Source: Escherichia coli (lineage in GTDB: Bacteria; Pseudomonadota; Gammaproteobacteria; Enterobacterales; Enterobacteriaceae). From it: a stretch of DNA of 64,000 nt. A model generated the notes under the pieces. That model saw only the letters and a program-made list of their open reading frames with translations, was not told the DNA's origin and searched no databases. Within the stretch, counting starts at the first letter, position 1. Every line of letters begins with the position of its first letter. Positions 7,118 to 31,990 of the stretch are shown in pieces. The stretch is taken from the NCBI RefSeq assembly GCF_024502345.1, contig NZ_JALDNN010000001.1. One strand, written 5' to 3'. Made by a program: the position numbers and the translations under genes.

Positions 7118-7204
7118 GCCCGGATGGTGGAATCGGTAGACACAAGGGATTTAAAATCCCTCGGCGTTCGCGCTGTGTGGGTTCAAGTCCCACTCCGGGT
7201 ACCA
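7118..7204 (+). tRNA. leuZ: tRNA-Leu (anticodon UAA), long variable arm; 3' half is the integration site of the element
   Basis: 87 nt ending CCA; anticodon loop gatttTAAaatcc; T-stem carries a compensatory U-A pair relative to the displaced copy at 34590-34645. Confidence 0.9.
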
Positions 7205-7276
7205 TGGGAAACATCAGAATAATCAAAGCAATAAGCAGTGTCGTTAAACCACCTCCGGGTGGTTTTTTTGTGCCTG
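7149..7276 (+). repeat. attL: direct repeat covering the 3' 56 nt of tRNA-Leu plus terminator
   Basis: About 128 bp, roughly 95% identical to 34590-34719. Confidence 0.85.
7246..7269 (+). terminator. Rho-independent terminator after leuZ
   Basis: Hairpin accacctccgggtggt followed by T7. Confidence 0.7.
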
Positions 7277-7445
7277 AAATTCATGTCCTGTGCATATCCT
7301 GTGCTCACGGGGTGCGATGAGCTGCAATCTCCAGCCTGGCAATGACGAATCGAACGTGTCGCCTCCAGCATAGAGAACCAGGCCGCTTTGCCTGTTTTCC
7401 GGTACGCTTCCGGGAAGGGGGGCCTGCTGAGCAAGCTGTAATGCT

Positions 7446-8186: not shown

Positions 8187-8266
8187 TCTTCAATCCTGCC
8201 CCGTAATAAAAACACCTTCAGATATATATTATCTCCATGATATCAATCAGATACATGAGGATAAAT

Positions 8267-9484
8267 ATGCAAAAATCCTTCCGATTCACCAATTCATCCA
8301 TCAAAGCCCTTCCGGCAAACACAGATACCCGATCTACAGAGCTTGAGGTATCAGATACCGAGGTCATAGGCCTCAAATGTCTCTCAGGTCGAACGGGTAA
8401 CAAACGTTTCCTCCTGCGCTACACATTCCACGGTACCAAAAAAAGTATCAGTATTGGCAGATTCCCTGAAATCGATGTGGGGACAGCCCGTCAGATAGCT
8501 CGCCGTCATAAGGAGGCGATTGCACTTGGAAATGACCCCAAGGCAGAGCGCGATAATTATCGTGCGATGCCAACGCTTAGTGAGTTTTTTCACCTGACCT
8601 ATGTTCCGTTCATCAAGCGCCATAAAAAGTCCTGGGATAAGGATGTTCAGCGTTTCACGCAATACATTGAACCTCGTCTGGGGAAGATACGTTACTGCGA
8701 TCTCAGGGCCAGAGAGATACAACAGGTGCTGTTTGACATGCTGGAGGGGCGTATTCACGGGCAGCAATATGCGCCGTCTACCTGTAACAGAGCCCTTGCT
8801 ATTCTGAAAACGATGGGGCGTTATGCGTTGCGACAGGATGTGCTGGAAAAGAATGAAGCCGATAAGATCCCTTTACTGAAAGAGAATAATCAGCGGACGC
8901 GCTTTTTTGATGCTGATGAGATCAGGCGCATTCTTGACGCTGCTACCCAATATCCCAACAAAGCTGCCGGGGGATTGATAGCCATGTTGTTGTTAACCGG
9001 TACACGCAAATCAGAAATGCTTAATGTCAGGCATGAACATATCGACCGGGCCAATCGTACTCTGTTCATTCCTTATACAAAAAATGGTCGCAGTCGGACG
9101 GTATATCTAAGCGATGCAGCATTATCGATTATTGATGCTATCCCACGAGTTGGCAGTAATCCGTATCTGTTCGCCATTAAGGATAATGGAAAACCGATAT
9201 CGGAACCCCGATGGGCATATGAAAAAATACTGGCACAGTGCGGTATAGACAAGAATGAAGTCTGTTTTCACACCACACGTCATTCTGTTGCCTCTTTACT
9301 GGTTTCGAGTGGTCAATTCAGCCTGTATGACGTTAAAGCACAACTGGCGCATGCCAGTATTCAAAGTACGGAGCGCTACGCGAAATTGACACCAGAGCGT
9401 ATGCGTCAGACCGGGCAGGGCGTAACTGACCTTCTTTTGAACACCGTTACTGCCGGTAACAATGATGATTTTAGCACCCCTTGA
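8267..9484 (+). CDS. Tyrosine recombinase / integrase (P4-like); alternative upstream ATGs at 8237 and 8255
   Basis: Catalytic signature TGTRKSE (R), HTTRHSVAS (HxxR), ERYAKL (Y); RBS gagga before ATG 8267; adjacent to tRNA att site. Confidence 0.85.
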   Translation: MQKSFRFTNSSIKALPANTDTRSTELEVSDTEVIGLKCLSGRTGNKRFLLRYTFHGTKKSISIGRFPEIDVGTARQIARRHKEAIALGNDPKAERDNYRAMPTLSEFFHLTYVPFIKRHKKSWDKDVQRFTQYIEPRLGKIRYCDLRAREIQQVLFDMLEGRIHGQQYAPSTCNRALAILKTMGRYALRQDVLEKNEADKIPLLKENNQRTRFFDADEIRRILDAATQYPNKAAGGLIAMLLLTGTRKSEMLNVRHEHIDRANRTLFIPYTKNGRSRTVYLSDAALSIIDAIPRVGSNPYLFAIKDNGKPISEPRWAYEKILAQCGIDKNEVCFHTTRHSVASLLVSSGQFSLYDVKAQLAHASIQSTERYAKLTPERMRQTGQGVTDLLLNTVTAGNNDDFSTP

Positions 9485-10847: not shown

Positions 10848-11282
10848 ATGCAAACCCAATATGCCTTAAAACAGGCAGGATTAACTCTGCCTGTTACTAA
10901 AGAATTTCAGCAGCATATTACTACTCTTCTGGCAAATCAGGTTTTACAAAAAATAACTGAGGCAGTGGTTATTAATTTCCGCGATCCGGACTACAGTGCA
11001 GAATCCGGGGGCTTTCATCCCGTTGAAATACGGTTTATCCGTAAGAATAATGAATGGTATTTTGATTATGTCACAGATTTTAGTTATATGGGGCGTGTCT
11101 ACCCTGAGCTGGAAAAAGAAATTGATTTTTGCTGGTCGGGGAATTATGTCTTCCATTATCTGATTGGGGATATTTCACTGGCAGCAGAGAGGAATGAACT
11201 CTGGTCTCTGTGGGAGCGTAATTTTATGGAGTATCTCTCTATGGGGATTTACCGGGTAACGGTAACTGTGGAAAGTTGTTGA
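10848..11282 (+). CDS. Hypothetical protein (element cargo)
   Basis: 144-aa ORF. Confidence 0.45.
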   Translation: MQTQYALKQAGLTLPVTKEFQQHITTLLANQVLQKITEAVVINFRDPDYSAESGGFHPVEIRFIRKNNEWYFDYVTDFSYMGRVYPELEKEIDFCWSGNYVFHYLIGDISLAAERNELWSLWERNFMEYLSMGIYRVTVTVESC

Positions 11283-12772: not shown

Positions 12773-13675
12773 TTACGGGGCGTTACTTGGCTGGGTGTAA
12801 CGTTTCAGTGCGGATTGTATATCTTCAGCAAGTTGTTGACGGATTGAGGCCGGTTGTATTACTTCGACATCCGGTATCCAGTATTTCATTAAAGGCATTA
12901 TCTGATCTGTGTGTGTTACACGTGATATCACCAGTAAATCGCCAGACCGGGAAGTATGAATTATTTCCTGTCCTGGCAATAGATGACGGTGGGTAAACCA
13001 CGGAGCAACATGTGCGGAAACTGAAATAAGAACTTCGATAAGGTCTTCGCTATACCAGATACCATCTGTCTTTTCTATTTTTTCATTAATTTCGGGGATT
13101 ATCCTGAAAGAGATATTACTCATGCAAACGTCTTTGACAGATGAGATAACAAAGCTTTTTAATGTACTGTCATGGGCGGCAGCGAGATACCACAATCCGT
13201 TGTCATTAACCAGCCTGTATGGCTCAACAGCCCGAAACTCTTTATCTTTGTAATTAAAATTTACTTTCTTCTGTGACAGGATGGCATCGGATAATACATT
13301 CAGAATTGACATGAATGATCCGCAGTTTTCGTATGGACGTTGTTTTATCAGAAACGGGTTGTTTTTCGTGTTACCTAACAAAATACTCAGTAGTCTGTCA
13401 TCCCAGCGAGGGAACAGCCCTTCAATACCCAGGATGCGCGTGAAATGACGTAAATCAGCATTGCTGCGTTGACCGAGAACACCGTCAGACAGGCGATAGC
13501 GACCATTTTGTCGAATCAGATTAAGATAGGACAGGCGCTGAGTAAGATCACGACGGATAGTTTTTTCGCAAACGTTAAATTCCTCAGATAACTCCCGGAC
13601 GGCTAGTGACTCACCATTGTTCAGGCGAGTTAATATCAATCCGAGTCGATATCCAAGTTTATCGTGCTTACCCAT
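12773..13675 (-). CDS. HTH + WYL-domain-type transcriptional regulator (YafY-like)
   Basis: 300 aa; N-terminal DeoR-like HTH ([21 protein letters not shown]), central region consistent with a WYL domain. Confidence 0.5.
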
Positions 13676-14429: not shown

Positions 14430-17030
14430 TCAGACTGGAAGACAGAATGTCGGATATTTACGGGCTATGATATCCATCAGTGACTTCATTCGCGGTGTTA
14501 CAGAACTAAATTTCATTTGGGGTATTTTTGCTCTTACCGCATTTTTTACATCAGTCACCGTTACTGAATAGCCTTCTGACGTCAGCCATTCAGCAACCTC
14601 TTTACAGGAATAACTTTTTTTATCTTTCAGCATCAGCCCCCATTGGCACTGAGTCAGCGCCCGGAGAAATAGTCTGACTAAAATATCATCACTACGTTTG
14701 CTTCCGACTTTTAGTTTCATATCAGAAAACACCGTCCGGCAATAGAGAAAATCACACCAGTCATCCCAGTCAGCCAGGGTCTTCAGTGTATGCGTTTGCC
14801 GCCAGTCGTCGAAAAGGGAGCGCTGCTGCAGAGCCTCTTCCATATTATCCCATGGGCGGGAAAACATCAGTAAATGCCCTTCATTCATGGCGGGCTGTAC
14901 GGGCTGGCGTTTGAAATCGAATTCCAGATTAAGACGGATATCCTGTTCCCGGGATACCAGATCGCTTTCCGACAGCCACATCTCACGCGTTGATATCAAC
15001 GTACTTCGGGATAAAGTCTGACCGGGTAAACGATTAAGGTAAAGATCTACCATATAGTCGTTATAGTCACTGCGTGGAATATCGGCAGGAGGTTTGACGC
15101 CAGCCCTGGCATGAACAACAGGTTTTCCCTGAATAGCTCTATAGGTTAACTGCCCCCGGGTTTTCATGGCGATAAGCTGGCTGACTTCATGCTTACATGT
15201 CAACATTGATGAACCCGGATCAACAATATCGCACAGCGACTGGAAGCGGGAAGACAGTGGACCGCTCATGTTTATCTTGTTAAGTGGGCAATTTGTCAAA
15301 AAGCCATCGGTTGTGACGCTGACAACCGATGAATCAGAAGGCAAAGCATTCATGAGTTCCCCGGCAACGGCGCGGATAAATCCCGTTACATGCGCAGCAA
15401 AGAATGGCTGAGTAACCGATGATGGTGGGAGGGATCTGTTTAATCCACGGGCAGTATCAAAGGCGGTTTTGGCGCGAAGGCCCTGAGCAAGTTTGCCATA
15501 AAGCGAGTTGCCAATTTCTTTCCAGAATTTCTCCTCCAGAGAACCTTTAATATGGCGATTACGGTTCTCACGGACCTGTTGAACAAAGGGAAGAAACACC
15601 GATGTTGATTCGCTGTTATGTGGGGAGGTGTCACAGATCCAGGGGACGATGATCCCATTATGGATCGTCATCTCTGCCCCGAGCGACAGAGCAAGTTCGA
15701 TTTCAGGTGCCGTTGCCCATGATTCGCCACTTAATGGAAAGAATAACCCATATTGATCGGTCCGAACCGGCAGGCTGGGATAGGGAACTGATTCCGGGAA
15801 CCGAAATGTGACAAGCGCAAATCCCATTACATGCCCACAGTAATCGTCCGGATTTTTACTGAGGCGGATGTTCCCGTAATCGGGTGTGAGGATATCTAAT
15901 AGCCCGGTGGTATACGCTCCAGCCAGATCGTAGTCATACCAGTGATCAGACGGTGTAACCCCCATCATAAAACACTCATTGCGTCCGCCGTGGTAACAGT
16001 TGATCGGGAACGTTTCAAACAACTCTCTTGAAGGAACACTGGCGGGGTTTTTAATCGTCCGGAATGCCTGTTTCTCCGTGAGCCAGAGTTCACGGGTTTT
16101 AATGTGTGTCCCAAGGCAGACTTCAGGAGACATATTGTTTTCTTTAAGTGTTTTGGTGAACCGTGAAACTGCCATCGCCCCGATGGTGGCGGGGACACGA
16201 TCAATCATCAGCTCCCGGGCGCAAAAATTGCGAACCTGTAAAGCATAACGAACCGCAATCTCGGCATCCCGCAGAGCATAGGCTTCAAACCCTGCTCTGT
16301 CGCCCAGAAGATATTCACGCATATTGGTTATGGAATAAGGTGCAGGAATGGTGAGTTTGGGAAGACCCAGTAATTCACCACATTCAGCCAGACCCATACC
16401 CCCGGGAGTGATAAGCAGTGTATCGATGAAAGCTACGTTACTGCAACGCGGAGGGGAAGTTCGTTTGTCAAACATTATCTGTTCAGTCTTTACGCGACGT
16501 TCCTGCTGTTCATCAAAATCGATACCGTAACGATTTTTGAAGCTGCTGACAGTACCGCGTATTCCTTTCAGAAGAATTTTGTAGTCTGACCAGAAATTGG
16601 CAAAGGAGGCGATATCCGCACGAATGAAATGCGCATATATATTAATAATACCGGGCCATTTTGTAATCACACCCGTTTCAAGAAGCGGTGTAATCGTTTG
16701 ACAGAGAAATTCCTTAAAAGACAGCCGGGATTTTTTCTGTGAGTCAGGTGGATAGATAATGTTCGATATACCTGTATTATCGGGTAAGATAACATAACTC
16801 TGATATGACAGAATATCATTCTGTCGTGTTTCAGGGTTGAAAACATATTCGGTATCAAAACCGATATGGAGTGTCAGGTCACTTGAAATAACAGATACTT
16901 TTTTTGATGCAGGTGGTATCACAGGATAATCATCAAGCGTTTTAGGTCTTTTACGATTGAGCGCTGGCTCTGAAGTCACGGACTGATACCCCGAGGCGGC
17001 AGCGAGGATGTCCTGCAAATTATTGCTCAT
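14430..17030 (-). CDS. Family-B DNA polymerase with 3'-5' exonuclease domain (piPolB-like); alternative start at 17093
   Basis: Exo I FDTE, Exo III YALRD, motif A DYDLAGAYTT, motif B KEIGNSLYGK, motif C VTTDGF, downstream KTRG, all in canonical order; RBS ggag before ATG 17030. Confidence 0.85.
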   Translation of the reverse strand: MSNNLQDILAAASGYQSVTSEPALNRKRPKTLDDYPVIPPASKKVSVISSDLTLHIGFDTEYVFNPETRQNDILSYQSYVILPDNTGISNIIYPPDSQKKSRLSFKEFLCQTITPLLETGVITKWPGIINIYAHFIRADIASFANFWSDYKILLKGIRGTVSSFKNRYGIDFDEQQERRVKTEQIMFDKRTSPPRCSNVAFIDTLLITPGGMGLAECGELLGLPKLTIPAPYSITNMREYLLGDRAGFEAYALRDAEIAVRYALQVRNFCARELMIDRVPATIGAMAVSRFTKTLKENNMSPEVCLGTHIKTRELWLTEKQAFRTIKNPASVPSRELFETFPINCYHGGRNECFMMGVTPSDHWYDYDLAGAYTTGLLDILTPDYGNIRLSKNPDDYCGHVMGFALVTFRFPESVPYPSLPVRTDQYGLFFPLSGESWATAPEIELALSLGAEMTIHNGIIVPWICDTSPHNSESTSVFLPFVQQVRENRNRHIKGSLEEKFWKEIGNSLYGKLAQGLRAKTAFDTARGLNRSLPPSSVTQPFFAAHVTGFIRAVAGELMNALPSDSSVVSVTTDGFLTNCPLNKINMSGPLSSRFQSLCDIVDPGSSMLTCKHEVSQLIAMKTRGQLTYRAIQGKPVVHARAGVKPPADIPRSDYNDYMVDLYLNRLPGQTLSRSTLISTREMWLSESDLVSREQDIRLNLEFDFKRQPVQPAMNEGHLLMFSRPWDNMEEALQQRSLFDDWRQTHTLKTLADWDDWCDFLYCRTVFSDMKLKVGSKRSDDILVRLFLRALTQCQWGLMLKDKKSYSCKEVAEWLTSEGYSVTVTDVKNAVRAKIPQMKFSSVTPRMKSLMDIIARKYPTFCLPV

Positions 17031-17076
17031 AGTTAACTCCGAAAAAATGCCGGGAGCTGTGTCCCGGCATAAAGAA

Positions 17077-17715
17077 TCAGGATTTAATAACATTTACTAC
17101 AGATTTGAAAATATCGGTTTTGTGTGATTCATCATCTACATGGATAAAGGAAACGAGTTTCCTGCCTGCTTTAATCAGGATACCGCGTTGCGTCTTTTCC
17201 ACAGACGGGGTAACGTGTGCAGATAACAGACAATGTTCATGTAAATGAAGAAACTTTTTTGAGGCGTAGCCGCCATGTAATCGGGCTTGAATGTCAAGAT
17301 ACATATCATCAAGAGAACCGGGTTCTCCTGATTCACTCAATACCGGATAACCCTTCTTATCAAAGAGGTTAAGGATAGATTTACTATCATGTTCGAACAG
17401 GGTAACACCGTAAATGTATTTCATTCGAAAGGTGAGGGAATCGGTGGTGTAGACCTCCTCCTGACGATTGAAATTTTTGAGACGCCTGGCTAATTCATTA
17501 AAAACAGCACGAGCAGTAGCCGTGTCCTGCAGGGTGTAGGTATAAAGTACGAAGCCATCTGTGCCGATGAGCTTTACTAAGTTGTCCATAATCGTGATAG
17601 CGAGAACTAATGCAAAGGACAGATATTTTTCATCGTTGTCTACAGCTGTGTTTGCTGCTTCAGGAAGAATGTTCAGTGCATTATTAGCATTATTTGCTGT
17701 GTTCTTAGTAACCAT
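17077..17715 (-). CDS. Hypothetical protein between the excisionase and PolB genes
   Basis: 212-aa ORF overlapping the xis stop by 11 nt; no recognisable motif. Confidence 0.5.
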   Translation of the reverse strand: MVTKNTANNANNALNILPEAANTAVDNDEKYLSFALVLAITIMDNLVKLIGTDGFVLYTYTLQDTATARAVFNELARRLKNFNRQEEVYTTDSLTFRMKYIYGVTLFEHDSKSILNLFDKKGYPVLSESGEPGSLDDMYLDIQARLHGGYASKKFLHLHEHCLLSAHVTPSVEKTQRGILIKAGRKLVSFIHVDDESHKTDIFKSVVNVIKS

Positions 17716-17905
17716 TTATATCACCTTTAAGTTTGTTTTGACGATGTGCATTTTCCCACTCAACAATATCATCAAGAGAGAATCGTATAGCCCGCCCAAT
17801 TCTGATGAAGGGCGGGAGTTTTCCTGGGTTGCGCGATATATCTGACGCAACCGTGGATGCGGAAAGATTAAATCTTTCTGCAAACTGCTTAATGGTTAAA
17901 TACAT
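17705..17905 (-). CDS. AlpA/Xis-family excisionase-like DNA-binding protein
   Basis: 66 aa; LTIKQFAERFNLSASTV ... winged-helix pattern typical of AlpA/Xis. Confidence 0.65.
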   Translation of the reverse strand: MYLTIKQFAERFNLSASTVASDISRNPGKLPPFIRIGRAIRFSLDDIVEWENAHRQNKLKGDINGY

Positions 17906-18055: not shown

Positions 18056-19186
18056 TCATTTTTTCGTGTCATAACTTTCTATGACCTGAGAAACCACTGC
18101 GTGCGATGTCGCTGCATTGTGAAAAGCGTAGCGACGGGTCGCCGTGAGTGAATGGTGATTTAGCAGATGGGAAGCGATTGCAATATCCCCGGTCGCCTGT
18201 AGTACCCGGGTGGCAAAGGTACGGCGCAGGTCATGCATCCGCAGGTTATCAATGTTGGCATCCCGACAAATACGGGCAAAGGTTGCACGCGGATATGCCA
18301 GAGGGCGGGCATTGTCGGTTAGTTGTGGAAAAATGTAAGTTTTGCTGAGCATCAGGTCTTGCTGGCACTGGACAACTGCAATGGCTGGAGGTGCAAGTGG
18401 GCAGGTGAAAGGGTGTCCGGACTTTGTATCAGGCAGTATGAGTTGATGCATATCCGGGTGCCAGTACTCCCATTTCAGGGTACATACCTCACCAATACGC
18501 ATCCCCGTATAAAGAGCAAGCAATATAGAATCAGCTGCCGGTGTTTGCAGCGCTGTTGCCGCGTCAATAAAGCGCGGGATTTCTGTCGCTGATAGTGTGC
18601 GATAGCGAATGTTATTTTCTTTCAGATAGCGGACATGTGACATCGGGGAATGTGTGATCCATCCAGCACGTACTGCCAGAGAGCATATTTTGGACAATAT
18701 TGCGAGGATACGGTTTACTGTTGACGGACGTAATTTTTCCCGTAAGCCAGCAGCATATTGTTCTAGTTCCCCTGCCGTGATGTCGCGAAGTTGCCGCTTG
18801 CCCCAGAACGGGCGAACGTAGAGGTTGAGTTTTGACAACTCTGACTGAGGACTCTTTTTATACAACTGCAAATCCGGTAGCCACAGGTCATTGATGGCCT
18901 GTTCCACAGTGAATCGACGGGACTGAACCGCAAGACGATTTTTATCAGCAAGCAGTTTCATCACATGCTGACGGGCATCCTCAACGCAGAGCTGAGGGAA
19001 CTGACCCAGGGTTTCATATATACGCTGATTGTTTATAGTGGCACGAAAGGCCAGCGTGATCCGATTGGGATACACCAGAGCACGCAGGTTTTGGCAGTGA
19101 ATATCACGGTATTCCTGACAACCCGTGAGGGGATGTGGAAGTTGGTGAAGTGATTTGTTGCTGAAACGCAGATCCAGAATAGGCAT
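18056..19186 (-). CDS. Second tyrosine recombinase (XerC/D-like integrase)
   Basis: 376 aa; RIGEV (R), HDLRRTFAT (HxxR), TRRYAFH (Y). Confidence 0.8.
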   Translation of the reverse strand: MPILDLRFSNKSLHQLPHPLTGCQEYRDIHCQNLRALVYPNRITLAFRATINNQRIYETLGQFPQLCVEDARQHVMKLLADKNRLAVQSRRFTVEQAINDLWLPDLQLYKKSPQSELSKLNLYVRPFWGKRQLRDITAGELEQYAAGLREKLRPSTVNRILAILSKICSLAVRAGWITHSPMSHVRYLKENNIRYRTLSATEIPRFIDAATALQTPAADSILLALYTGMRIGEVCTLKWEYWHPDMHQLILPDTKSGHPFTCPLAPPAIAVVQCQQDLMLSKTYIFPQLTDNARPLAYPRATFARICRDANIDNLRMHDLRRTFATRVLQATGDIAIASHLLNHHSLTATRRYAFHNAATSHAVVSQVIESYDTKK

Positions 19187-22505: not shown

Positions 22506-24029
22506 ATGAACGACAAAATCAGTCAGGACACGATCAACAAAGCCCTGTGGGCCGCGTGTGATACGTTCCGTGGCACCATCAGTGCTGATACCTATAAAGA
22601 CTTTATCCTTACCATGCTATTCCTTAAGTACATTTCGGATGTCTGGCAGGATCACTACGACGAATATAAAGTGCAATATGGTGATGAGCCGGAACTGATT
22701 GAAGCGATGATGGCGAACGAGCGCTTCGTGTTGCCGAAAAGCGCCAGTTTCTATGCGTTGTACGAGCGACGTCATGAGCCGGGCAACGGTGAGCGTATCG
22801 ATCAGGCGCTGCATGCGATTGAAGAAGCCAACGGCACCAAACTGAAAGATGCCGGGAAAAGTGTCTTCCAGGATATTTCGTTTAACACTGACCGTCTGGG
22901 CGAAGAAAAACAGAAGAACACCATCCTGCGTCAGTTGCTGGAAGACTTTGCCGGTGAAGATCTTAACCTGAAGCCAAGCCGTGTCGGTACGCTGGACGTT
23001 ATCGGTAATGCTTACGAATATCTGATCAAAAACTTTGCTGCCAGCGGTGGGCAGAAAGCCGGGGAATTCTATACCCCACCGGAAGTTTCGGATCTCATCG
23101 CTGAACTGCTTGATCCTCAACCCGGTGATACAATCTGCGACCCGGCCTGTGGTTCCGGTTCGTTGCTAATGAAGTGCGGGCGTAAAATTGTCTCAGGACA
23201 TGATAGCCGCAACTATGCGTTGTTCGGTCAGGAAGCGATTGGCTCCACGTGGTCGCTGGCGAAAATGAACATGTTCCTGCACGGCGAAGATAACCACAAA
23301 ATCGAGTGGGGCGATACCATTCGTAACCCGAAGTTGTTGGATAAAAACGGCGACCTGATGCTGTTTGATATCGTGACCGCAAACCCACCGTTCAGCCTGG
23401 ATAAGTGGGGCCATGACGAGGCCGAGAATGATAAGTTTGGGCGTTTCCGTCGCGGTGTACCGCCGAAGACTAAAGGGGATTACGCCTTTATCTCGCATAT
23501 GATCGAAACCCTGAAACCGGGAACGGGTCGTATGGGCGTAGTGGTGCCGCACGGTGTGCTGTTCCGTGGCTCCAGCGAAGGCAAAATTCGTCAGAAGCTG
23601 ATTGATGAAAACCTACTCGATGCGGTGATTGGCCTGCCTGAAAAACTGTTCTACGGTACGGGTATTCCTGCTGCAATTCTGATTTTTAAAAAGCAGAAAG
23701 TGGATGACAAGGTGCTGTTTATCGACGCCAGCCGTGAATTTAAGGCAGGTAAAAACCAGAACCAGCTCAGCGCAGAAAACATCGAGAAAATCGTCAAGAC
23801 CTACCGTGATGGCGATAGCGTCGAGAAATATGCCTACCTTGCCAGCCTGAAGGAGATTCAGGACAACGATTACAACCTCAATATTCCGCGCTATGTCGAT
23901 ACCTTTGAAGAAGAAGAAGATATCGATTTACTTGCCGTTCGTGCTGAGCGGGAGGAATTGAAAGCGGAACTGGCGAAATTGGAAACGCAGATGGCGGGTT
24001 ATCTGGAGGAGCTGGGTTATGGTGCCTAA
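22506..24029 (+). CDS. hsdM: Type I restriction-modification N6-adenine DNA methyltransferase subunit
   Basis: 507 aa; SAM-binding DPACGSGSLL and catalytic NPPF (VTANPPFSL). Confidence 0.9.
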   Translation: MNDKISQDTINKALWAACDTFRGTISADTYKDFILTMLFLKYISDVWQDHYDEYKVQYGDEPELIEAMMANERFVLPKSASFYALYERRHEPGNGERIDQALHAIEEANGTKLKDAGKSVFQDISFNTDRLGEEKQKNTILRQLLEDFAGEDLNLKPSRVGTLDVIGNAYEYLIKNFAASGGQKAGEFYTPPEVSDLIAELLDPQPGDTICDPACGSGSLLMKCGRKIVSGHDSRNYALFGQEAIGSTWSLAKMNMFLHGEDNHKIEWGDTIRNPKLLDKNGDLMLFDIVTANPPFSLDKWGHDEAENDKFGRFRRGVPPKTKGDYAFISHMIETLKPGTGRMGVVVPHGVLFRGSSEGKIRQKLIDENLLDAVIGLPEKLFYGTGIPAAILIFKKQKVDDKVLFIDASREFKAGKNQNQLSAENIEKIVKTYRDGDSVEKYAYLASLKEIQDNDYNLNIPRYVDTFEEEEDIDLLAVRAEREELKAELAKLETQMAGYLEELGYGA

Positions 24030-25266
24030 GGGGTGGAAACGAGTACCGATTAAGGATGTGTGCGAGTCTATAATCGATTGCGTAAATAAAACAGCTCCAG
24101 TTGTTGATTATGAAACTCCCTTTAAGATGATTCGTACCACGAATGTACGTAATGGAAGGGTTAATACTGAAGACGTCAGATATGTGACTGAAGACACTTA
24201 CCTGCAATGGGTTCGACGCGGAAAACCGCAAGTAGGTGATATCATCTTTACACGTGAAGCACCTGTAGGAGAAGCAGGTGTCCTGCAAGATGCTGAAGGT
24301 ATTTTCCTCGGGCAAAGAACGATGATGTATCGAGCTGATACCTGCCTTTCAGATAACTATTTCTTGTTCTACTCGTTATCAAGTCCCTTCTGCCAGAAAC
24401 AAATTGAAGATTTTAGCAATGGCGGTACTGTAGCTCATATGAGAGTTCCAGATTGCGGTGAGATATTGATCAATCTACCGCCTTTCCTCGAACAAAAGAA
24501 AATCGCCCAAATCCTGTCAACCTGGGATAAGGCGATTTCGGTGACGGAAAAGCTTCTCACCAACAGCCAGCAGCAGAAAAAAGCCCTGATGCAGCAATTG
24601 CTTACTGGGAAGAAACGCTTGCTGGATGAGAATGGGACAAGGTTTTCTGAAACTTGGAAATTATATGCCTTATCGAAATTATTTCAGAGAGTTACGACTA
24701 AAAACAATGGAAAAAGCAACAATGTTGTAACCATTTCTGGACAACATGGTTTGATTAAACAGGAAGACTTTTTCAAGAAAACAGTCGCATCAGATACCCT
24801 TGATGGTTATTTCTTATTAAAAAAAGGGCAGTTTGCTTACAATAAAAGTTACTCTAATGGTTATCCGATGGGTGCAATAAAAAGATTAAATCGATATCCA
24901 GAGGGAGTAGTAACAACTCTGTATATATGTTTTGAACTTACTACACCCAAAAAATCATGTGGTGACTATTGGGAGCATTATTTTGAGTCAGGGCTTTTGA
25001 ATAACAGTTTGTCTCAAATTGCTCATGAAGGTGGACGGGCTCATGGCTTGCTAAATGTAAAACCTTCGGACTTCTTTTCATTAAAAGTTGCGGTTCCTGG
25101 CTTTGAAGAGCAACAAAAAATCGCATTAGTTCTGTCCGCTGCCGACACCGAAATCTCCACACTGGAGAAAAAACTCGCCTGCCTGAAAGACGAGAAGAAA
25201 GCCTTGATGCAGCAACTGCTGACCGGGAAACGTCGGGTGAAAGTGGATGAGGCGGTTGCCGTATGA
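24019..25266 (+). CDS. hsdS: Type I restriction-modification specificity subunit
   Basis: 415 aa; two target-recognition halves each followed by the conserved repeat KKALMQQLLTGK(K/R)R; overlaps hsdM stop. Confidence 0.88.
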   Translation: MVPKGWKRVPIKDVCESIIDCVNKTAPVVDYETPFKMIRTTNVRNGRVNTEDVRYVTEDTYLQWVRRGKPQVGDIIFTREAPVGEAGVLQDAEGIFLGQRTMMYRADTCLSDNYFLFYSLSSPFCQKQIEDFSNGGTVAHMRVPDCGEILINLPPFLEQKKIAQILSTWDKAISVTEKLLTNSQQQKKALMQQLLTGKKRLLDENGTRFSETWKLYALSKLFQRVTTKNNGKSNNVVTISGQHGLIKQEDFFKKTVASDTLDGYFLLKKGQFAYNKSYSNGYPMGAIKRLNRYPEGVVTTLYICFELTTPKKSCGDYWEHYFESGLLNNSLSQIAHEGGRAHGLLNVKPSDFFSLKVAVPGFEEQQKIALVLSAADTEISTLEKKLACLKDEKKALMQQLLTGKRRVKVDEAVAV

Positions 25267-25946
25267 AACTGACGAAAAGCGGTCCACTGACTGACCGGGA
25301 AATCGACTGGCTGGAAGAAATATTAATGAAGTATGGAATGGATGATTCTGTACTCTGTTTCTCTGAGCTGGATGGATTGCTGACGGCGATTTTATCAGGT
25401 CCAAATATGGTTTCACCCAATATCTGGCTGAGTGCTATTTGGGGAGGAGGCGATTATCATCCGAAATGGTCATCTGAGAGAGAGATGGAGCGTTTTGTCA
25501 GTCTGTGTTTTCAGCATATGAACGATATCGCTGGTTGCCTTTATGACGCCCCTGAACTGTTTGAGCCGATTTTCAATGAGCGTGAGGTAAAGGGGGAAAA
25601 ATATACCATTGTGGAAGAGTGGTGTTTTGGTTATATGAAAGGAAAGTCACTGGATGACTGGTCTGGTCTTCCCGGTGAGTTACGGCCTTCTCTGGAAGTG
25701 ATCGCTCTTCATGGCGTGGAGAAGAATTTTCCTGTACTTGAGAAAATGACCGGAGAGCAGTTTGAGAAAAGTATTTCCCTTATTCAGCCTGCTGCACTGG
25801 CACTTTATCAGTACTGGTTGTCAGTGAGAATGTCAGAGGCATCATCCCGGCCTGTTCCAGTGAAGGGGGCAGAAAACATGCCCGGGCGAAATGACCCGTG
25901 TCCGTGTGGCAGCGGTAAAAAATTTAAGAAGTGCTGTCTGCATTGA
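25263..25946 (+). CDS. YecA-like (UPF0149) protein with C-terminal SEC-C metal-binding motif, embedded between hsdS and hsdR
   Basis: 227 aa; C-terminus [20 protein letters not shown]; alignable along its length with chromosomal YecA at 34841-35506. Confidence 0.75.
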   Translation: MKLTKSGPLTDREIDWLEEILMKYGMDDSVLCFSELDGLLTAILSGPNMVSPNIWLSAIWGGGDYHPKWSSEREMERFVSLCFQHMNDIAGCLYDAPELFEPIFNEREVKGEKYTIVEEWCFGYMKGKSLDDWSGLPGELRPSLEVIALHGVEKNFPVLEKMTGEQFEKSISLIQPAALALYQYWLSVRMSEASSRPVPVKGAENMPGRNDPCPCGSGKKFKKCCLH

Positions 25947-25995
25947 TGAATCTTCATGTGACCAGTAGCGAGTAGCGCCAGAAAGAAAAGGATTA

Positions 25996-28900
25996 ATGAT
26001 GAACCAGACGTACACGCCAAAATTCCAGGAAGAATACAGCGCCAAAATTCCGGCACTGACGTTACTGACCAGCCTCGGCTGGACGTTTTTATCTCCGAAA
26101 CAGATTATGGATTACCGGGGCTATAAACAGGATGAGGTGGTGCTGCGTCCGGTTCTGCGTGAAGAGCTGTCGAAGCGTTCCTTTATGGCGGGTGGCAAAA
26201 CCTGCCAGTTATCGGAAAAAGCACTGGATAACCTGATATCACAGGTCTGTTCTCCGGCGCTGAATGAAGGGCTGCTCAAAGCCAATGAACGGATGTATAA
26301 CCATCTGCTCTACGGTATCGCCGTCACGGAGTTTGTCGATGGCAAGAAGGTCAACCCCACCATTGCGCTGATCGACTGGGAACATCCGGAAAATAACCAG
26401 TTCCACTTTACTGAAGAATTTACGGTATTGCGGTCAGGTGGTGTTGAAACCCGGAGGCCAGATATTGTCTGCTTTGTTAATGGTATCCCGCTGGCTGTTA
26501 TTGAAGCGAAAAGCCCGGCTGGTCATGGCAAGAAAGGGCCAACCATTGACGAGGGGATATCCCAGAGTATCCGCAACCAGTTCAACGATGAAATCCCGCA
26601 GCTGTTTGTCTACAGCCAGTTATTACTTTCGATTAACGGTCATGACGGGCGCTACGGTACATGCCATACGCCAATGAAATTCTGGGCGGCATGGCGCGAA
26701 GAAGATATTACCGATGCGCAGATGTATGCTCTGCGCAACCATCCTTTATCGACTGAACAAATTCATGCGTTGTTTGATCATCGTCCATCAGCCGATCTCA
26801 ACTGGTACCAACAGTTAATCGCCGCCGGTGAACTGGCTGTCAGTGGACAGGACAAACTGCTCATCAGCCTGCTTTCGCCGGAACGTCTGCTGGAGATGAC
26901 CCGCTTCTTCACTCTGTTTGATAAAAAGACCGGGAAAATTGTCGCCCGCTATCAGCAGGTGTTCGGTATTAAAAGACTGCTGGAGCGCATCAGTACCCGC
27001 AGACCCGATGGGGGCAGGGAAGGTGGTGTTATCTGGCATACCACCGGCTCTGGCAAATCGTACACCATGGTGTTCCTCAGCAAGGCGCTGATTCTTCATG
27101 ACAGCCTGAAGCGGTGTCGTATCGTGGTGGTGACGGACCGTATCGATCTTGAAGAACAGCTCAGCAGTACCTTTGCATCCGGCGGCGAGTTGGCCGGGAA
27201 AAAAGACAAAGCCAATGCAATGGCGACATCCGGGCAGATGCTGGCGAAACAGATTGGCTCCGGTAAAGAACGCATCATTTTCACCCTAATCCAGAAATTT
27301 AATTCAGCGACAAAACTTCCTGAATGCGTCAATACCAGCCCCGATATCATCGTTCTGGTTGATGAAGGACACCGTAGCCAGGGTGGTGAGAACCATGTGC
27401 GAATGAAACTGGCACTGCCGAACGCCGCCTTTGTGGCATTTACTGGTACGCCATTGCTAAAAGAAGATAAGACCACCAATAAATTCGGACCGATTGTCCA
27501 CGCTTATACCATGCAGCGAGCGGTAGAAGATAAAGCCGTTACACCTTTGCTGTATGAAGAACGTATTCCCGACCTTGAGGTTAACGATCGGGCAATAGAT
27601 GCCTGGTTTGATCGTATTACCGATGGGTTAAGCGAAGCGCAAAAAGCCGACCTGAAGCGTAAATATGCCCGTAAAGGTGAGGTTTATAGTGCAGATGATC
27701 GCATCCGTCTGATCGCACTCGATATCGCCACGCACTTCTCGAAGAATATTGATGAGGGACTGAAAGGCCAGCTTGCCTGCGACAGCAAGATTTCCGCCAT
27801 CAAATATAAAAAGTATCTTGATGAAGCCGGGTTGTTTGAGTCAGCTGTAGTTATCAGCCCGCCGGATACCCGGGAAGGGAATACCGAAGTGGATGAAAGC
27901 AAACTGCCGGAAGTGACGAAATGGTGGAAGGATAATGTCGGCACGCAGGATGAGTCTGTGTATACCCGTAATGTCATCAGTCGTTTCGATACCGATGAGA
28001 AGCTCAAATTGCTGATAGTCGTTGATAAACTGCTCACCGGGTTTGATGAGCCGAAGAATACCGTGCTGTATATCGACAAGCCGCTTAAGTCCCACAACCT
28101 TATCCAGGCGATTGCGCGGGTGAACCGACTGCATCCACTAAAAAAGTTCGGTCTGCTGATTGATTATCGCGGTATTCTGGCTGAGCTGGACACGACTATC
28201 GGCAAATATCAGGACCTCGCCTCCCGAACTCAGGGCGGATACGATATCAAAGATATTGACGGGCTGTACAGCGCCATGAGCTCTGAATACAAGCGCCTGC
28301 CGCATCTGTATAACCAGCTGTGGGCCATATTTGCCGGTGTTAAAAACAAAAATGATACTGAGCAGTTACGTGCGGTACTGGTGCCTAAAATGGAAGAACG
28401 TGACGGAGAGATGGTCGATATCCATCAGAAAACCCGTGATGATTTCTTCGAGGCGTTAACGGCCTTTGCCGGATGCCTGAAAGTGGCACTGCAGTCCGCT
28501 ACCTTCTTCACCGACAAGAGCTTTACGGAACAAGACCGAAATCTCTATAAAGAAACCGTAAAACAGATGTCCAGCCTGCGCCAGTGGGCGATGCAGGTAA
28601 GTGGAGAGCAGGTCAATTATGACGACTACGCTGAGCAGGTGAAAAAACTGCTGGATAAGCATGTCACCGGCGTTGAAGTTCGTGAACCGGATGGCGTGTA
28701 TGAAGTCGGTAAAATGGGCAAGAGCGAAAAGCCCGAAGAGTGGGACAACAATAAAACCCGCAATGAAACCGACATCATTAAAACCCGTGTGACAAAGATG
28801 ATTGAGCAGGAATTGCGTGATGACCCGTATGCTCAGGAGGCATTTTCAAAACTCCTGCGTATGGCTATCGAAGAGGCTGAAAAACTGTTTGACCATCCGC

Positions 28901-29283
28901 TGAAACAGTACCTTTTGTTCCGTGAATTTGAAGAACAGGTTGAAGCCCGTAAGCTCAGCGATATCCCGGATGCACTGGCGGTAAACAAGCATGCTCAGGC
29001 GTATTACGGTGTATTTAAAAAAGAGCTACCTGAGGTTTTTGCGGTAAACGACGTTCAGGTGCAGGATAAGTGGACGAAGCTGGCTTTTGAAGTGGACAAC
29101 ATTATCGTCAAAGCGGTGGCAGAAAACTCCCTGAACCCCCAGGACATTGAGAAAGTCGTTAAGACAAGTCTGCTACCACTGCTGTTTACGGCCTGCCGGG
29201 AAATTGGTGCCGGAATGAATCAGGTTAACCGTATTGTTGAAACCATCATCCAGATACTGCGCGTTGGTTTGATGAAATCATGA
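25996..29283 (+). CDS. hsdR: Type I restriction enzyme R subunit (nuclease/helicase)
   Basis: 1095 aa; helicase motif I TTGSGKS, motif II DEGHRSQ, N-terminal nuclease region. Confidence 0.9.
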   Translation: MMNQTYTPKFQEEYSAKIPALTLLTSLGWTFLSPKQIMDYRGYKQDEVVLRPVLREELSKRSFMAGGKTCQLSEKALDNLISQVCSPALNEGLLKANERMYNHLLYGIAVTEFVDGKKVNPTIALIDWEHPENNQFHFTEEFTVLRSGGVETRRPDIVCFVNGIPLAVIEAKSPAGHGKKGPTIDEGISQSIRNQFNDEIPQLFVYSQLLLSINGHDGRYGTCHTPMKFWAAWREEDITDAQMYALRNHPLSTEQIHALFDHRPSADLNWYQQLIAAGELAVSGQDKLLISLLSPERLLEMTRFFTLFDKKTGKIVARYQQVFGIKRLLERISTRRPDGGREGGVIWHTTGSGKSYTMVFLSKALILHDSLKRCRIVVVTDRIDLEEQLSSTFASGGELAGKKDKANAMATSGQMLAKQIGSGKERIIFTLIQKFNSATKLPECVNTSPDIIVLVDEGHRSQGGENHVRMKLALPNAAFVAFTGTPLLKEDKTTNKFGPIVHAYTMQRAVEDKAVTPLLYEERIPDLEVNDRAIDAWFDRITDGLSEAQKADLKRKYARKGEVYSADDRIRLIALDIATHFSKNIDEGLKGQLACDSKISAIKYKKYLDEAGLFESAVVISPPDTREGNTEVDESKLPEVTKWWKDNVGTQDESVYTRNVISRFDTDEKLKLLIVVDKLLTGFDEPKNTVLYIDKPLKSHNLIQAIARVNRLHPLKKFGLLIDYRGILAELDTTIGKYQDLASRTQGGYDIKDIDGLYSAMSSEYKRLPHLYNQLWAIFAGVKNKNDTEQLRAVLVPKMEERDGEMVDIHQKTRDDFFEALTAFAGCLKVALQSATFFTDKSFTEQDRNLYKETVKQMSSLRQWAMQVSGEQVNYDDYAEQVKKLLDKHVTGVEVREPDGVYEVGKMGKSEKPEEWDNNKTRNETDIIKTRVTKMIEQELRDDPYAQEAFSKLLRMAIEEAEKLFDHPLKQYLLFREFEEQVEARKLSDIPDALAVNKHAQAYYGVFKKELPEVFAVNDVQVQDKWTKLAFEVDNIIVKAVAENSLNPQDIEKVVKTSLLPLLFTACREIGAGMNQVNRIVETIIQILRVGLMKS

Positions 29284-30035
29284 GTGAAAAAGAATCGCCA
29301 TCAATGAAAGCGTTACGCATTGTCTATGGTGATGAGGTCATCGTCGTACAGTGTGTTCCGCGTCAGGTCGTAAAGGGCAGGGTGCTCATTAAGGTTTATC
29401 CGGACTGCCGGGTTGTGGCCTCTGTACCGCCTGAAACACCGGAGCACGAGGTATTGTCTGCGCTGAAAAAACGTGGGCGCTGGATATACCAGCAACTGCG
29501 TGATTTCAGGGAGCAACAGATACACATTGTTCCGCGTCAGTATGTCAGCGGAGAAAGCCATTATTATCTCGGTAAGCAATATCAGTTGAAAGTGACAGAA
29601 GACGCTACTGTGCCGCAACGAGTGAAAATGTTGCGTGGACGTCTGGAAGTGACTGTCAGACACAAATCGGCAGAAAAGATTAAAGCCTTGCTGGCTGAAT
29701 GGTATCGGGAACGTGCCAGAGATGTTTTTCAGCGCAGGCTTGATTTACTGATTCCGCAGACCCTTTGGGTCAGTGAGCGTCCTCCGATACGTCTGCGGGC
29801 GATGCAAACGCAATGGGGCAACTGTTCAGCAAAAGGCTGTCTGACCCTGAATCCATGGCTGGTTAAGGCATCTTCAGAATGTATCGATTATGTTTTGCTA
29901 CATGAGTTATGCCATGTGGCTGAGCACAACCACAGCGAGGAGTTTTACCGTCTGATGGGACAGGTTATGCCGGGCTGGGAAAAGGTTAAGAAGCGACTGG
30001 ATGGTATGGCTGGGATGTTGTTGGCAGATATGTAA
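29280..30035 (+). CDS. DUF45/YgjP-like predicted zinc metallohydrolase (M48/WLM-like)
   Basis: 251 aa; HELCHVAEHNHSEEF metal-binding signature; start overlaps hsdR stop. Confidence 0.7.
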   Translation: MSEKESPSMKALRIVYGDEVIVVQCVPRQVVKGRVLIKVYPDCRVVASVPPETPEHEVLSALKKRGRWIYQQLRDFREQQIHIVPRQYVSGESHYYLGKQYQLKVTEDATVPQRVKMLRGRLEVTVRHKSAEKIKALLAEWYRERARDVFQRRLDLLIPQTLWVSERPPIRLRAMQTQWGNCSAKGCLTLNPWLVKASSECIDYVLLHELCHVAEHNHSEEFYRLMGQVMPGWEKVKKRLDGMAGMLLADM

Positions 30036-30093
30036 CTTATCAATATGAGTTCTTAAGAGTTTGGTCAGTCTCGTTAATGCAGGGAGTATAATA

Positions 30094-31932
30094 ATGAGTA
30101 AGTTAGATAATAAAATTGAAGCACGCCATCGTAATTTGTTTGATGTTCTAAATGCGCAAAAATATACCGTTGATTACTTTCAGCGCGAGTATAGCTGGGG
30201 TGAGAAACATATTGAAGAGTTGGTTACAGACTTAACATCTGCGTTTCTCAATGAATACACAGTCGGTGATTCTCGGGAGCAGGGTGAAAACTACAATAAT
30301 TATTACTTAGGACCATTTGTTGTGAGTAGTAAAGATGGAAAGCGGAGTATTATTGATGGTCAGCAACGACTGACTTCATTAACTTTATTTCTAATTTACC
30401 TCCATAATCTTCAGAAAGAACTTAAATATGAAGAGAAAATAGAATCAATGATTTTCTCCGAGCTACGTGGCAGCAAATCATTCAATATAGTAGTTGAAGA
30501 CAGAATTCCTTGCATGGAAGCATTGTTTAATTTTGGTAGCTATAGTTTAGTTGATGGGGATGATGAGTCAACCCATAACATGGTGGAGAGATATCAGAAT
30601 ATCACAGATGCTTTTCCTGATGAGTTAAAAGGTCAGGCTTTTCCTTTTTTTATCGACTGGCTTAAGTATAACGTTATTATGGTTGAGATAGTCGCCTATT
30701 CAGATGAAAACGCATATACCATCTTTGAGACTATGAATGACCGAGGATTGAATCTTACTCCGTCCGAAATGCTTAAAGGTTTTTTACTTTCACGTTTTCA
30801 TCAGGGAGATAAACGCCAAAAGGCAAATGAACTCTGGAAAAAAGCGATGATGGATTTAAAAAGCTATGACAAAGATGAAGACCAACGTTTTTTCCAGTCA
30901 TGGTTGCGTGCTCAATATGCTGATACAATACGCCCGGGTAAAGCTGGTTCAAAAAATGAAGACTTTGAAAAAATAGGTACGCGTTTTCATAGCTGGGTTA
31001 GAGATAATCTTCAGGCGGTGGGATTGGACCCAGATAATGGTGAGACATTCGAACGATTTATACAAAAAAACTTTTTGTTTTATTTGAATGCCTATACACA
31101 AATACTGAATGCTGAGAGAGTATTAACGCACCAACTGGAATATGTATTTTATATCCACCATTGGGGTATTGCACCTACTTTAAGTTTTCCTTTGATGTTG
31201 GCTCCATTAAATGTAGGTGACAGTCCTGAGGCTGTGATAGCCAAAATAAACCTAGTGGCTCGCTATATTGAAACGTTTGTTGTTCGTCGTTCTGTTAATT
31301 TCCGAAAATTCTCTGCCAGTTCTATTCGTTACACAATGTACAGTCTTGTTAAAGAGATTCGTGGTAAAAGTTTTGAAGAATTAAAAGATTTATTATCTAA
31401 GAAGTTATCCGAAATGCCAGATACTTTTGCAGGAATGGAAGAGTTTCGTCTCCATGGTCAAAACTATCGTTTTGTGAAGTTTTTGCTTTCTCGTATAACT
31501 GCGTGGGTTGAGCAACAAGCCGGAATGAGTACAACCTTCATTACATATTATCAGCCAGAACACGGTAAGCCATTTGAAGTCGAGCATATTTGGGCCGATA
31601 AATATGAACGTTACTCTGATGAGTTTGAACAAGAGCACGAATTTAACAATTACAGAAATCGCTTAGGTGATTTGGTTTTATTACCTAGAGGCTCAAACCA
31701 GTCATATGGTGATTTGTGTTACGATCAAAAGCAACCTCATTACATCAAAGAGAATCTCCTGGCTAAATCGTTATGCCCATTGGCATATATGAATAACCCT
31801 AATTTCAATCAGTTGAGAAATGTATTCGGATTGCCTTTCAAACCACATGATTCATTTAAAAAACAAGATGTCGATGAACGACAGTCTTTGTATAAAATAA
31901 TTTGTGAGAATATTTGGGGCCATAATTTATAG
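30094..31932 (+). CDS. DUF262 + DUF1524 protein (GmrSD-family-like, predicted type IV restriction endonuclease)
   Basis: N-terminal IIDGQQRLTSL (DUF262 DGQQR motif), C-terminal FEVEHIWA His-Me finger-like (DUF1524); RBS ggag before ATG 30094. Confidence 0.7.
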   Translation: MSKLDNKIEARHRNLFDVLNAQKYTVDYFQREYSWGEKHIEELVTDLTSAFLNEYTVGDSREQGENYNNYYLGPFVVSSKDGKRSIIDGQQRLTSLTLFLIYLHNLQKELKYEEKIESMIFSELRGSKSFNIVVEDRIPCMEALFNFGSYSLVDGDDESTHNMVERYQNITDAFPDELKGQAFPFFIDWLKYNVIMVEIVAYSDENAYTIFETMNDRGLNLTPSEMLKGFLLSRFHQGDKRQKANELWKKAMMDLKSYDKDEDQRFFQSWLRAQYADTIRPGKAGSKNEDFEKIGTRFHSWVRDNLQAVGLDPDNGETFERFIQKNFLFYLNAYTQILNAERVLTHQLEYVFYIHHWGIAPTLSFPLMLAPLNVGDSPEAVIAKINLVARYIETFVVRRSVNFRKFSASSIRYTMYSLVKEIRGKSFEELKDLLSKKLSEMPDTFAGMEEFRLHGQNYRFVKFLLSRITAWVEQQAGMSTTFITYYQPEHGKPFEVEHIWADKYERYSDEFEQEHEFNNYRNRLGDLVLLPRGSNQSYGDLCYDQKQPHYIKENLLAKSLCPLAYMNNPNFNQLRNVFGLPFKPHDSFKKQDVDERQSLYKIICENIWGHNL

Positions 31933-31990
31933 CAAAGTTGGGGTGTTAATTAATGTGTAATGGCATCATGATTTTTAAAAGGAGGTTGAA

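Follow-up and report, generated by a model that had tools for sequence, protein, structure and literature searches.

The family-B DNA polymerase gene at 14430..17030 of the window (the whole 64,000-nt stretch of Escherichia coli DNA that was analyzed, from contig NZ_JALDNN010000001.1) is, with high confidence, the primer-independent polymerase (piPolB) gene of an E. coli pipolin, a 27.6-kb integrative element at tRNA-Leu, between pgsA and yecA. The gene is already known; the E. coli piPolB was purified and characterized in 2017. The initial annotation had proposed a candidate piPolB, and the SxTTDG and KH-X8-KTRG signatures, the published residue numbering, the phi29-like fold and the pipolin context all agreed with that proposal.

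The open reading frame was located on the minus strand (no strand had been given previously), running from 17093 to 14430, with 887 aa if counted from the first ATG. In strain C1, whose copy is identical, the RefSeq start is equivalent to window position 17030 and gives 866 aa, and a GGAG Shine-Dalgarno sequence was found 6 nt upstream of this start. The ATG at 17093 was without a Shine-Dalgarno sequence and is ACG in H10407. As only the 866-aa numbering also fits the published mutants, the previous range of 866-887 aa was narrowed to an intact 866-aa frame as the supported one, and the in-frame extension is probably not translated.

14430..17030, minus strand: piPolB gene, 866 aa plus stop, assigned from the uninterrupted reading frame and the motifs
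17031..17093, minus strand: in-frame upstream extension (887-aa product), holding a hairpin and overlapping the end of orf212

A motif scan of the 866-aa protein recovered each of the following motifs once and in the expected order (866-aa numbering).

Exo I: FDTE, 58-61, containing D59 and E61
Exo II: HFIRAD, 134-139, containing D139
Exo III: YALRD, 251-255, containing Y251 and D255
Motif A: DYDLAGAYTT, 366-375, with catalytic D368 and steric-gate Y373
Motif B: KEIGNSLYGK, 504-513, of the KxxxNSxYG type
Motif C: VSVTTDGF, 570-577, where SxTTDG is S571-V-T-T574-D575-G576 and threonine replaces the first D of DTD
KTRG: 623-626, where K613-H614, eight residues and then K623-T-R625-G626 form KH-X8-KTRG, which replaces KxY

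FDTE, YALRD, DYDLAGAYTT, KEIGNSLYGK, VSVTTDGF and KTRG had been listed in canonical order before, and all were confirmed; Exo II was not in that list. Conservation was assessed across 50 homologues with 28-48% identity, in which D59, E61, D139, Y251, D255, D368, Y373, K504, N508, Y511, G512, T574, D575, K613 and R625 were invariant or near-invariant. The exonuclease motif residues were kept in 43-49 of the 50 homologues, the D139 position being D in 43 and E in 6. D368, Y373, K504, G512 and K613 were invariant, as were T574 and D575 (50/50), N508 and Y511 were at least 96% conserved, and R625 was present in 49/50.

The product was accordingly regarded as a complete PolB and no fragment, as the initial annotation had stated, with 866 uninterrupted codons and full exonuclease and polymerase active sites; the motif A and C aspartates (D368 and D575), whose loss had been named as the sign of a pseudogene, were both intact. 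A decaying gene or inactive relic that is complete in looks only is very improbable. Truncated E. coli versions occur in AFDB (465, 497 and 662 aa), deleted pipolins have been described (PMC11551731), and many RefSeq copies are labelled 'hypothetical protein'; against this, all catalytic residues were present in an unbroken frame, pN/pS was ~0.13 against the H10407 copy, indicating purifying selection, and the protein was 99% identical to full-length copies, its exact sequence being present on 74 contigs.

Profile searches gave weaker matches for the window protein than for its homologues. The Pfam DNA_pol_B_2 model (PF03175) scored below significance on the window protein (i-E 0.014, 14.7 bits), and an NCBIfam search with the protein matched no model. 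The same Pfam model matched 40 of the 50 homologues at E <= 0.001 (best 2.3e-13), so the weak match does not refute the assignment. The lack of a significant PolB HMM match had been named in the initial annotation as a refuting outcome, and the window protein came close to it; homology was supported instead by the family members that pass Pfam, by PHROGs (DNA polymerase matches, E 4e-6 and 8e-5) and by the fold. The sub-threshold Pfam score helps to show why annotation pipelines miss piPolB, for which the RefSeq label in most genomes is 'hypothetical protein'. PDB sequence and family-profile searches returned no relevant match, with chance matches at E ~1 (5way transcriptional activator and PACRG, respectively).

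The AF2 model (pLDDT 88.6, pTM 0.87) predicted a phi29-like PolB fold. The nine best PDB matches in Foldseek were all phi29 DNA polymerase (E 2e-16), with a TM of 0.65 (target-normalised, ~570 target residues), and other PolBs scored ~0.3 (about 0.33). piPolBs are characterised by a phi29-like fold with TPR1 and TPR2 insertions; the comparison here addressed the overall fold. The 141-aa C-terminal domain (residues 726-866) was all-helical in this model and matched no known fold.

With phi29 DNA polymerase as the best structural match, and tectivirus and archaeal-virus protein-primed PolBs (pPolBs) as the only phage relatives, the gene might be read as a pPolB of the phi29/Bam35 type, requiring a terminal protein and carried by a cryptic tectivirus-like or linear-plasmid element. 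Such an origin is given hardly any probability. The window protein is an SxTTDG/KTRG protein without the canonical pPolB DTD motif C and KxY, having TTD and KH-X8-KTRG in their place, and the tectivirus relative has ETD and is without KTRG. pPolBs are associated with terminal-protein-linked linear genomes, but the window element is integrated, with direct repeats at its ends and recombinases present, and neither a capsid gene nor a gene for a terminal protein was recognised in it (H10407 annotation, NCBIfam and PHROGs). A phage polymerase was also rejected as a candidate, the only matches being weak ones to tectivirus and archaeal-virus pPolBs, all without the piPolB signatures.

The piPolB assignment was supported at the residue level. 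SxTTDG motif C and KH-X8-KTRG define piPolB (PMC5695915), and D59, E61, D368, K613, H614, K623 and R625 coincide with the positions at which the E. coli enzyme was mutated for biochemical analysis in 2017 (PMC5695915). The window protein is an intact piPolB family member, ~1% from other E. coli copies. It was 99% identical to the protein of ETEC H10407 (8/866 residues differ), a strain that PMC7385651 lists as carrying a pipolin, and it matched an E. coli AFDB entry of 866 aa, also at 99% identity. Published piPolB screening primers mapped within the gene (14718-14738 and 15281-15304), the forward primer with 2 mismatches.

The surrounding element was delimited by 131-133-nt direct repeats. 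Host genes flanked it, with pgsA upstream (C1 annotation) and yecA and tyrP past the distal repeat (equivalog matches), and the tRNA-Leu between pgsA and yecA is the reported E. coli pipolin site (PMC7385651, PMC11551731). The following features were assigned.

7118-7204: tRNA-Leu(taa), from tRNA prediction
7149..7279, plus strand: att repeat at the proximal pipolin end, from the repeat search, overlapping the 3' half of tRNA-Leu(taa)
8237..9484, plus strand: tyrosine recombinase adjoining the tRNA (Xer-type NCBIfam E 7e-24; site-specific integrase in C1 and H10407)
10848..11282, plus strand: DUF2787 protein, a pipolin core marker, from RefSeq annotation of the syntenic C1 and H10407 genes
12773..13675, minus strand: HTH-WYL-WCX transcriptional regulator, a core marker (Pfam WYL 2.5e-10, WCX 1.7e-9, HTH_DeoR 5.6e-8)
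17077..17715, minus strand: orf212, an orphan gene conserved in pipolins (labelled 'hypothetical' in both C1 and H10407)
17705..17905, minus strand: excisionase-type HTH protein, 66 aa (TIGR01764 E 3.5e-5, under the curated cutoff; PHROG 66 E 4e-7)
18056..19186, minus strand: tyrosine recombinase adjoining piPolB (PHROG 1 integrase E 5e-52; Xer-type NCBIfam matches)
22506..34404, plus strand: defence cargo module, from PADLOC matches and RefSeq annotation of the syntenic H10407 region
34590..34722, plus strand: att repeat at the distal pipolin end, from the repeat search, 95% identical to the proximal repeat

The published pipolin core comprises an IntSXT-type integrase close to the att site, an IntP2-type integrase and excisionase beside piPolB, and, in addition, DUF2787, WYL and orphan genes (PMC11551731). 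By position, the recombinase adjoining the tRNA (start annotated in C1 at ~8278 of the window) would be IntSXT, and that adjoining piPolB would be IntP2 (PMC11551731). No family match was found for orf212 in NCBIfam, PHROGs or Pfam. The cargo comprised a type I R-M system (HsdM, HsdS, a YecA-like gene and HsdR), an M48 peptidase, a DUF262/HEC-06-like gene, a PD-(D/E)XK gene (PDC-S26) and an Mrr-like nuclease; PADLOC matches were to type I R-M, PDC-S12, HEC-06/DUF262, PDC-S26 and Mrr-like. The window element matches the published pipolin in its att repeats, two recombinases and excisionase, core, and defence cargo.

The initial annotation had called a PolB on such an island unusual, which was overstated, since the gene defines a catalogued family of elements; among 5426 complete E. 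coli genomes, 295 (~5%) carried it, always on the chromosome, many RefSeq copies having only the 'hypothetical protein' label. It has been reported in 11,431 assemblies (PMC11551731). The relatives on plasmids were precisely those already published as plasmid pipolins (pSE-12228-03, Limosilactobacillus and Pseudosulfitobacter).

Transcription in line with int2-xis-orf212 had also been stated previously. The gene order was as described, but simple co-transcription of orf212 and piPolB is unproven, because a conserved, G+C-rich terminator-like hairpin intervenes, between orf212 and the GGAG ribosome-binding site of piPolB and directly upstream of the latter.

17047..17070, minus strand: terminator-like hairpin, 9-bp stem with 6 G-C pairs, then T6, from a consensus scan

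The fold had an MFE of -19.9 kcal/mol (z -3.0), and the stem was conserved in H10407, though the loop there is 4 nt longer. The hairpin may lower piPolB expression. No description of a hairpin and T6 upstream of piPolB was found in the piPolB and pipolin literature consulted. A promoter scan of 13600-20700 returned 12 sites against 16.9 in shuffled sequence and was therefore uninformative on an operon promoter. It is conceivable, if rather doubtful, that the C-terminal domain is a new module for primer-independent initiation or for recruitment to the excised element, with the hairpin acting as an attenuator until excision or stress.

The E. coli piPolB starts DNA synthesis de novo on ssDNA with dNTPs, without primase or terminal protein and with no strong template sequence requirement, and it also performs faithful primer extension, proofreading, strand displacement and bypass of non-bulky lesions (PMC5695915). 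Catalysis depends on D368, retention of the primer terminus on K623 and R625, and priming and lesion bypass on K613 (PMC5695915). Given its near-identity to this orthologue, the window protein would be expected to be primer-independent. In the proposed mechanism, the tyrosine recombinases and excisionase would excise the pipolin to a circular form, which piPolB would copy from multiple origins; as a secondary effect, the enzyme may re-prime downstream of lesions on host DNA. Excision, circularisation and self-replication of pipolins are a proposal of the literature, and no experimental demonstration of excision or of replication of the excised E. coli pipolin was found in the piPolB and pipolin literature consulted.

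The role in the cell may be other than element replication, the polymerase acting instead on host or invading DNA, either in damage-tolerant re-priming downstream of replication blocks or in some part of the island's defence function, which the neighbouring WYL protein might control. In favour of this reading, the literature consulted yielded no report that the excised E. coli pipolin replicates, and over-expression of wild-type piPolB, and not of D368A, raised survival of mitomycin C and UV (PMC5695915). Pipolins are also defence islands, in whose conserved core piPolB is linked with a regulator of the WYL-domain type (PMC11551731). The survival effect was, however, limited to over-expression in BL21, and no PADLOC defence-system model includes piPolB (judged by model content). 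On small plasmids (pSE-12228-03, 8 kb) piPolB has no rival as candidate replicase, and it also occurs in mitochondrial plasmids (PMC5695915). A main role on host or invading DNA was therefore considered possible but on the whole unlikely, the occurrence of piPolB on small and mitochondrial plasmids arguing for element replication as the ancestral role.

The enzyme is of note in that, as a family-B polymerase of the replicative type, it begins DNA chains with no need of a primase, and it is already used to amplify whole genomes without primers (PMC10440786). This significance derives from work published in 2017-2024 and not from the window. The window locus is a clean, intact 27.6-kb pipolin with both att sites, a complete core, defence cargo and no co-integrated prophage, and would be a convenient copy for studying excision, replication by piPolB and how the polymerase gene is regulated.

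Among known systems, the closest is P0DPS1, the piPolB of the E. coli 3-373-03_S1_C2 pipolin (Redrejo-Rodriguez et al. 2017, PMC5695915), with the same species, motifs and tRNA-Leu site. The same length is implied by identical numbering at the seven mutated positions. Identity with P0DPS1 is suggested by this residue numbering, by the 295 E. coli copies at least 95% identical at the DNA level, and by the primers; no difference of substance was detected, and an allelic difference of ~1% or less is expected. Synteny with the H10407 pipolin (NC_017633.1) extended across 98% of window 7100-32000 (DNA identity 97.7%), with the same core order and near-same cargo (type I R-M, DUF262, PD-(D/E)XK gene and Mrr-like gene). 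In H10407, unlike in the window, a co-integrated P2-like prophage separates the tRNA from the pipolin, and an MZA defence system follows the pipolin; the H10407 DUF2787 gene also has an internal stop.

The phi29 and Bam35 pPolBs have the overall fold and the chemistry of Exo I-III, motif A and motif B in common with the window protein, at ~12-13% identity. The window protein differs in TTD for DTD, KTRG for KxY and no recognised terminal protein, and it has in addition the 141-aa C-terminal helical domain and a ~50-aa disordered N-terminus. Casposon and polinton PolBs are likewise element-encoded family-B polymerases on integrative mobile elements (concept: PMC5695915, PMC7385651). Those elements have Cas1 or a retroviral-type integrase and a protein- or RNA-primed PolB, whereas the window element has tyrosine recombinases, att repeats and a putatively primer-independent enzyme.

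The polymerase gene and the element that carries it have already been described, and the enzyme has already been characterised; they are not new. The window is E. coli chromosome, with the order fliA...uvrC-pgsA followed by tRNA-Gly, tRNA-Cys and tRNA-Leu (6902-7204). Two direct repeats (131 and 133 nt; 95% identical) are located at 7149-7279, overlapping the 3' half of tRNA-Leu(taa), and at 34590-34722, directly beyond which are host yecA and tyrP. The published E. coli site for pipolins (mobile elements carrying a primer-independent family-B DNA polymerase, piPolB) is tRNA-Leu with pgsA on one side and yecA on the other (PMC7385651, PMC11551731), and this site is occupied by the element, whose G+C content is 43% vs. 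~50% in the flanks. The repeats, the site and the core genes inside the repeats bear out the pipolin context proposed by the initial annotation.

Features of the element
8237-9484: tyrosine recombinase adjoining the tRNA, pipolin core gene
10848-11282: DUF2787 gene, pipolin core gene
12773-13675: HTH-WYL-WCX regulator, pipolin core gene
17093 to 14430, minus strand: piPolB ORF, uninterrupted frame
17077-17715, minus strand: orphan orf212, upstream of piPolB, pipolin core gene
17705-17905, minus strand: excisionase-like HTH protein, upstream of piPolB, pipolin core gene
18056-19186, minus strand: second tyrosine recombinase, upstream of piPolB, pipolin core gene
22506-34404: defence cargo, in the other half of the element

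The cargo comprises a type I R-M system, a DUF262/HEC-06-like gene, a PD-(D/E)XK gene (PDC-S26 type) and an Mrr-like nuclease. A YecA-family gene (PADLOC PDC-S12; 25263-25946, plus strand) within the R-M operon is 57% identical to host yecA (34841-35506, plus strand), just outside the distal att repeat; YecA paralogues thus flank the element boundary on both sides, as the cargo copy is inside and host yecA outside. Between core and cargo, two large ORFs of 376 and 411 aa (19330-20460 and 20967-22202, both minus strand) lie in the lowest G+C stretch of the element (~35%); searches of NCBIfam, PHROGs and PADLOC gave no match for either, and both are ‘hypothetical’ in E. coli strains C1 and H10407. 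Elsewhere in the window (53824-54333, 55525-56034), two direct repeats, one 185 nt and the other 300 nt long, have copies that are 1701 nt apart and 73-77% identical; they sit within a 560-aa ORF and its 534-aa neighbour. From their position and size, these ORFs resemble a paralogous pair of chemoreceptor genes, tar/tap, and are ordinary host genes.

The initial annotation placed the polymerase gene correctly at 14430-17030, leaving its minus-strand orientation unstated. Every PolB motif that it listed was found in the translation, in single copy and in the order given; Exo II (HFIRAD, D139) is present as well.

Motifs in the translation of the piPolB ORF, numbered from ATG 17030
Residues 58-61: Exo I, FDTE
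Residues 251-255: Exo III, YALRD
Residues 366-375: motif A, DYDLAGAYTT
Residues 504-513: motif B, KEIGNSLYGK
Residues 570-577: motif C, VSVTTDGF
Residues 623-626: KTRG element

The start at 17030 is favoured because GGAG precedes it with a 6 nt spacer, ATG 17093 is without a GGAG-type ribosome-binding site and reads ACG in H10407, the RefSeq start of the identical strain C1 gene is the equivalent of 17030, and only this start reproduces the published residue numbers. The 887-aa version from ATG 17093 (17031-17093, minus strand) shares 17 nt with the end of orf212. An 866-aa product is therefore supported, with the ORF-finder start at 17093 an artefact.

Redrejo-Rodriguez et al. (2017; PMC5695915) characterised the piPolB encoded by the pipolin of E. 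coli 3-373-03_S1_C2; there the family was defined by SxTTDG replacing YxDTDS, and mutants were made at D59/E61 (exonuclease), D368 (polymerase), and K613, H614, K623 and R625 (KH-X8-KTRG element). At these seven positions the 866-aa product has D, E, D, K, H, K and R, with agreeing local sequence. It is identical at 858/866 residues to the protein of ETEC H10407, a listed pipolin carrier (PMC7385651), and shares 99% identity with an E. coli AFDB entry of the same length (866 aa). Residue numbering, SxTTDG, KH-X8-KTRG and the H10407 match all agree with the proposed candidate piPolB, and its identity, though indirect, with the characterised enzyme (UniProt P0DPS1) is strongly supported. The exact protein occurs on 74 NCBI contigs, labelled ‘hypothetical protein’. 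The published piPolB screening PCR primers both fall within the gene in convergent orientation, the reverse primer matching perfectly. piPolB_FW (15281-15304) differs from this allele at two bases, including the 3'-terminal one, and surveys based on it could overlook the variant; prevalence was 1.1% by published PCR vs. 5.4% of complete genomes here, in different strain sets.

The refuting condition set by the initial annotation, lack of a significant PolB HMM match, came close to applying when read literally. A significant match was obtained for homologues rather than for the protein itself: Pfam returned DNA_pol_B_2 alone (i-E 0.014) and NCBIfam no match, while 40/50 full-length homologues (28-48% identity) matched DNA_pol_B_2 at E ≤ 0.001 (top value 2.3e-13). 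The poor scores reflect a very divergent family, for which exhaustive search gave 2041 cluster representatives at E ≤ 0.001. PHROGs DNA-polymerase families matched at 4e-6 and 8e-5. Solved structures searched by phmmer and family profile included none relevant; a confident alignment-based AlphaFold2 model (pLDDT 88.6, pTM 0.87) had phi29 DNA polymerase as all of its top nine PDB matches (E 2e-16, phi29-normalised TM 0.65), with archaeal and eukaryotic family-B enzymes next (TM ~0.3). Catalytic residues are invariant or near-invariant family-wide, and codons differ from H10407 by 19 synonymous and 8 non-synonymous changes (crude pN/pS ~0.13, small counts). On conserved catalytic residues and this ratio a pseudogene was rejected, and the gene is, judged by these comparisons, an intact PolB under selection.

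In primer extension the E. coli orthologue is faithful and proofreads; it is also capable of strand displacement and of bypassing non-bulky lesions, and it synthesizes DNA de novo on ssDNA, whether circular or linear, from dNTPs alone and with no strong template sequence requirement. KH-X8-KTRG was suggested to keep the primer terminus stable and to promote binding of the incoming nucleotide (PMC5695915). The excised circular pipolin would be replicated by piPolB. A role in damage tolerance, as a rival or in addition, is suggested by better survival after MMC and UV with piPolB over-expression (PMC5695915). The proposal that piPolB is transcribed in line with int2-xis-orf212 held in part: int, xis, orf212 and piPolB point the same way with little space between them, but a terminator-like hairpin (17070-17047, minus strand; 9-bp G+C-rich stem, 6 G-C pairs, then T6; -19.9 kcal/mol MFE, z -3.0) occupies the interval that separates the stop codon of orf212 from the GGAG of piPolB. 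In H10407 the loop carries a 4-nt insertion, yet the stem is preserved. As the gap from hairpin to ribosome-binding site is too short for a promoter, piPolB transcription would have to pass through the hairpin, which may attenuate expression. A promoter scan of 13600-20700 gave fewer sites than shuffled sequence did (12 vs. 16.9) and was uninformative on a promoter for these genes.

The gene was found in 295/5426 complete E. coli genomes, chromosomal and at ≥ 95% identity in all. Plasmid-borne relatives (22-31% identity) were known plasmid pipolins and Fusobacterium and Helicobacter plasmids. Relatives in phage genomes were weak only, being tectivirus and archaeal-virus protein-primed PolBs (pPolBs) without piPolB signatures. 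The tectivirus relative, a 683-aa polymerase whose annotation reads ‘DNA primase/polymerase’, is encoded by four Microbacterium tectiviruses of 15 kb (in phage MuffinTheCat, L004 1655-3706) and was rejected as a piPolB (motif C ETD, KTRG absent); the only other relative in the phage collection was one archaeal-virus pPolB.

The core half and defence-cargo half of the element fit the ‘bimodular’ pipolin model (PMC11551731). The H10407 pipolin is syntenic, with 97.7% identity over 98% of the stretch compared (7100-32000), and differs in a co-integrated prophage that is absent from the element in the window.
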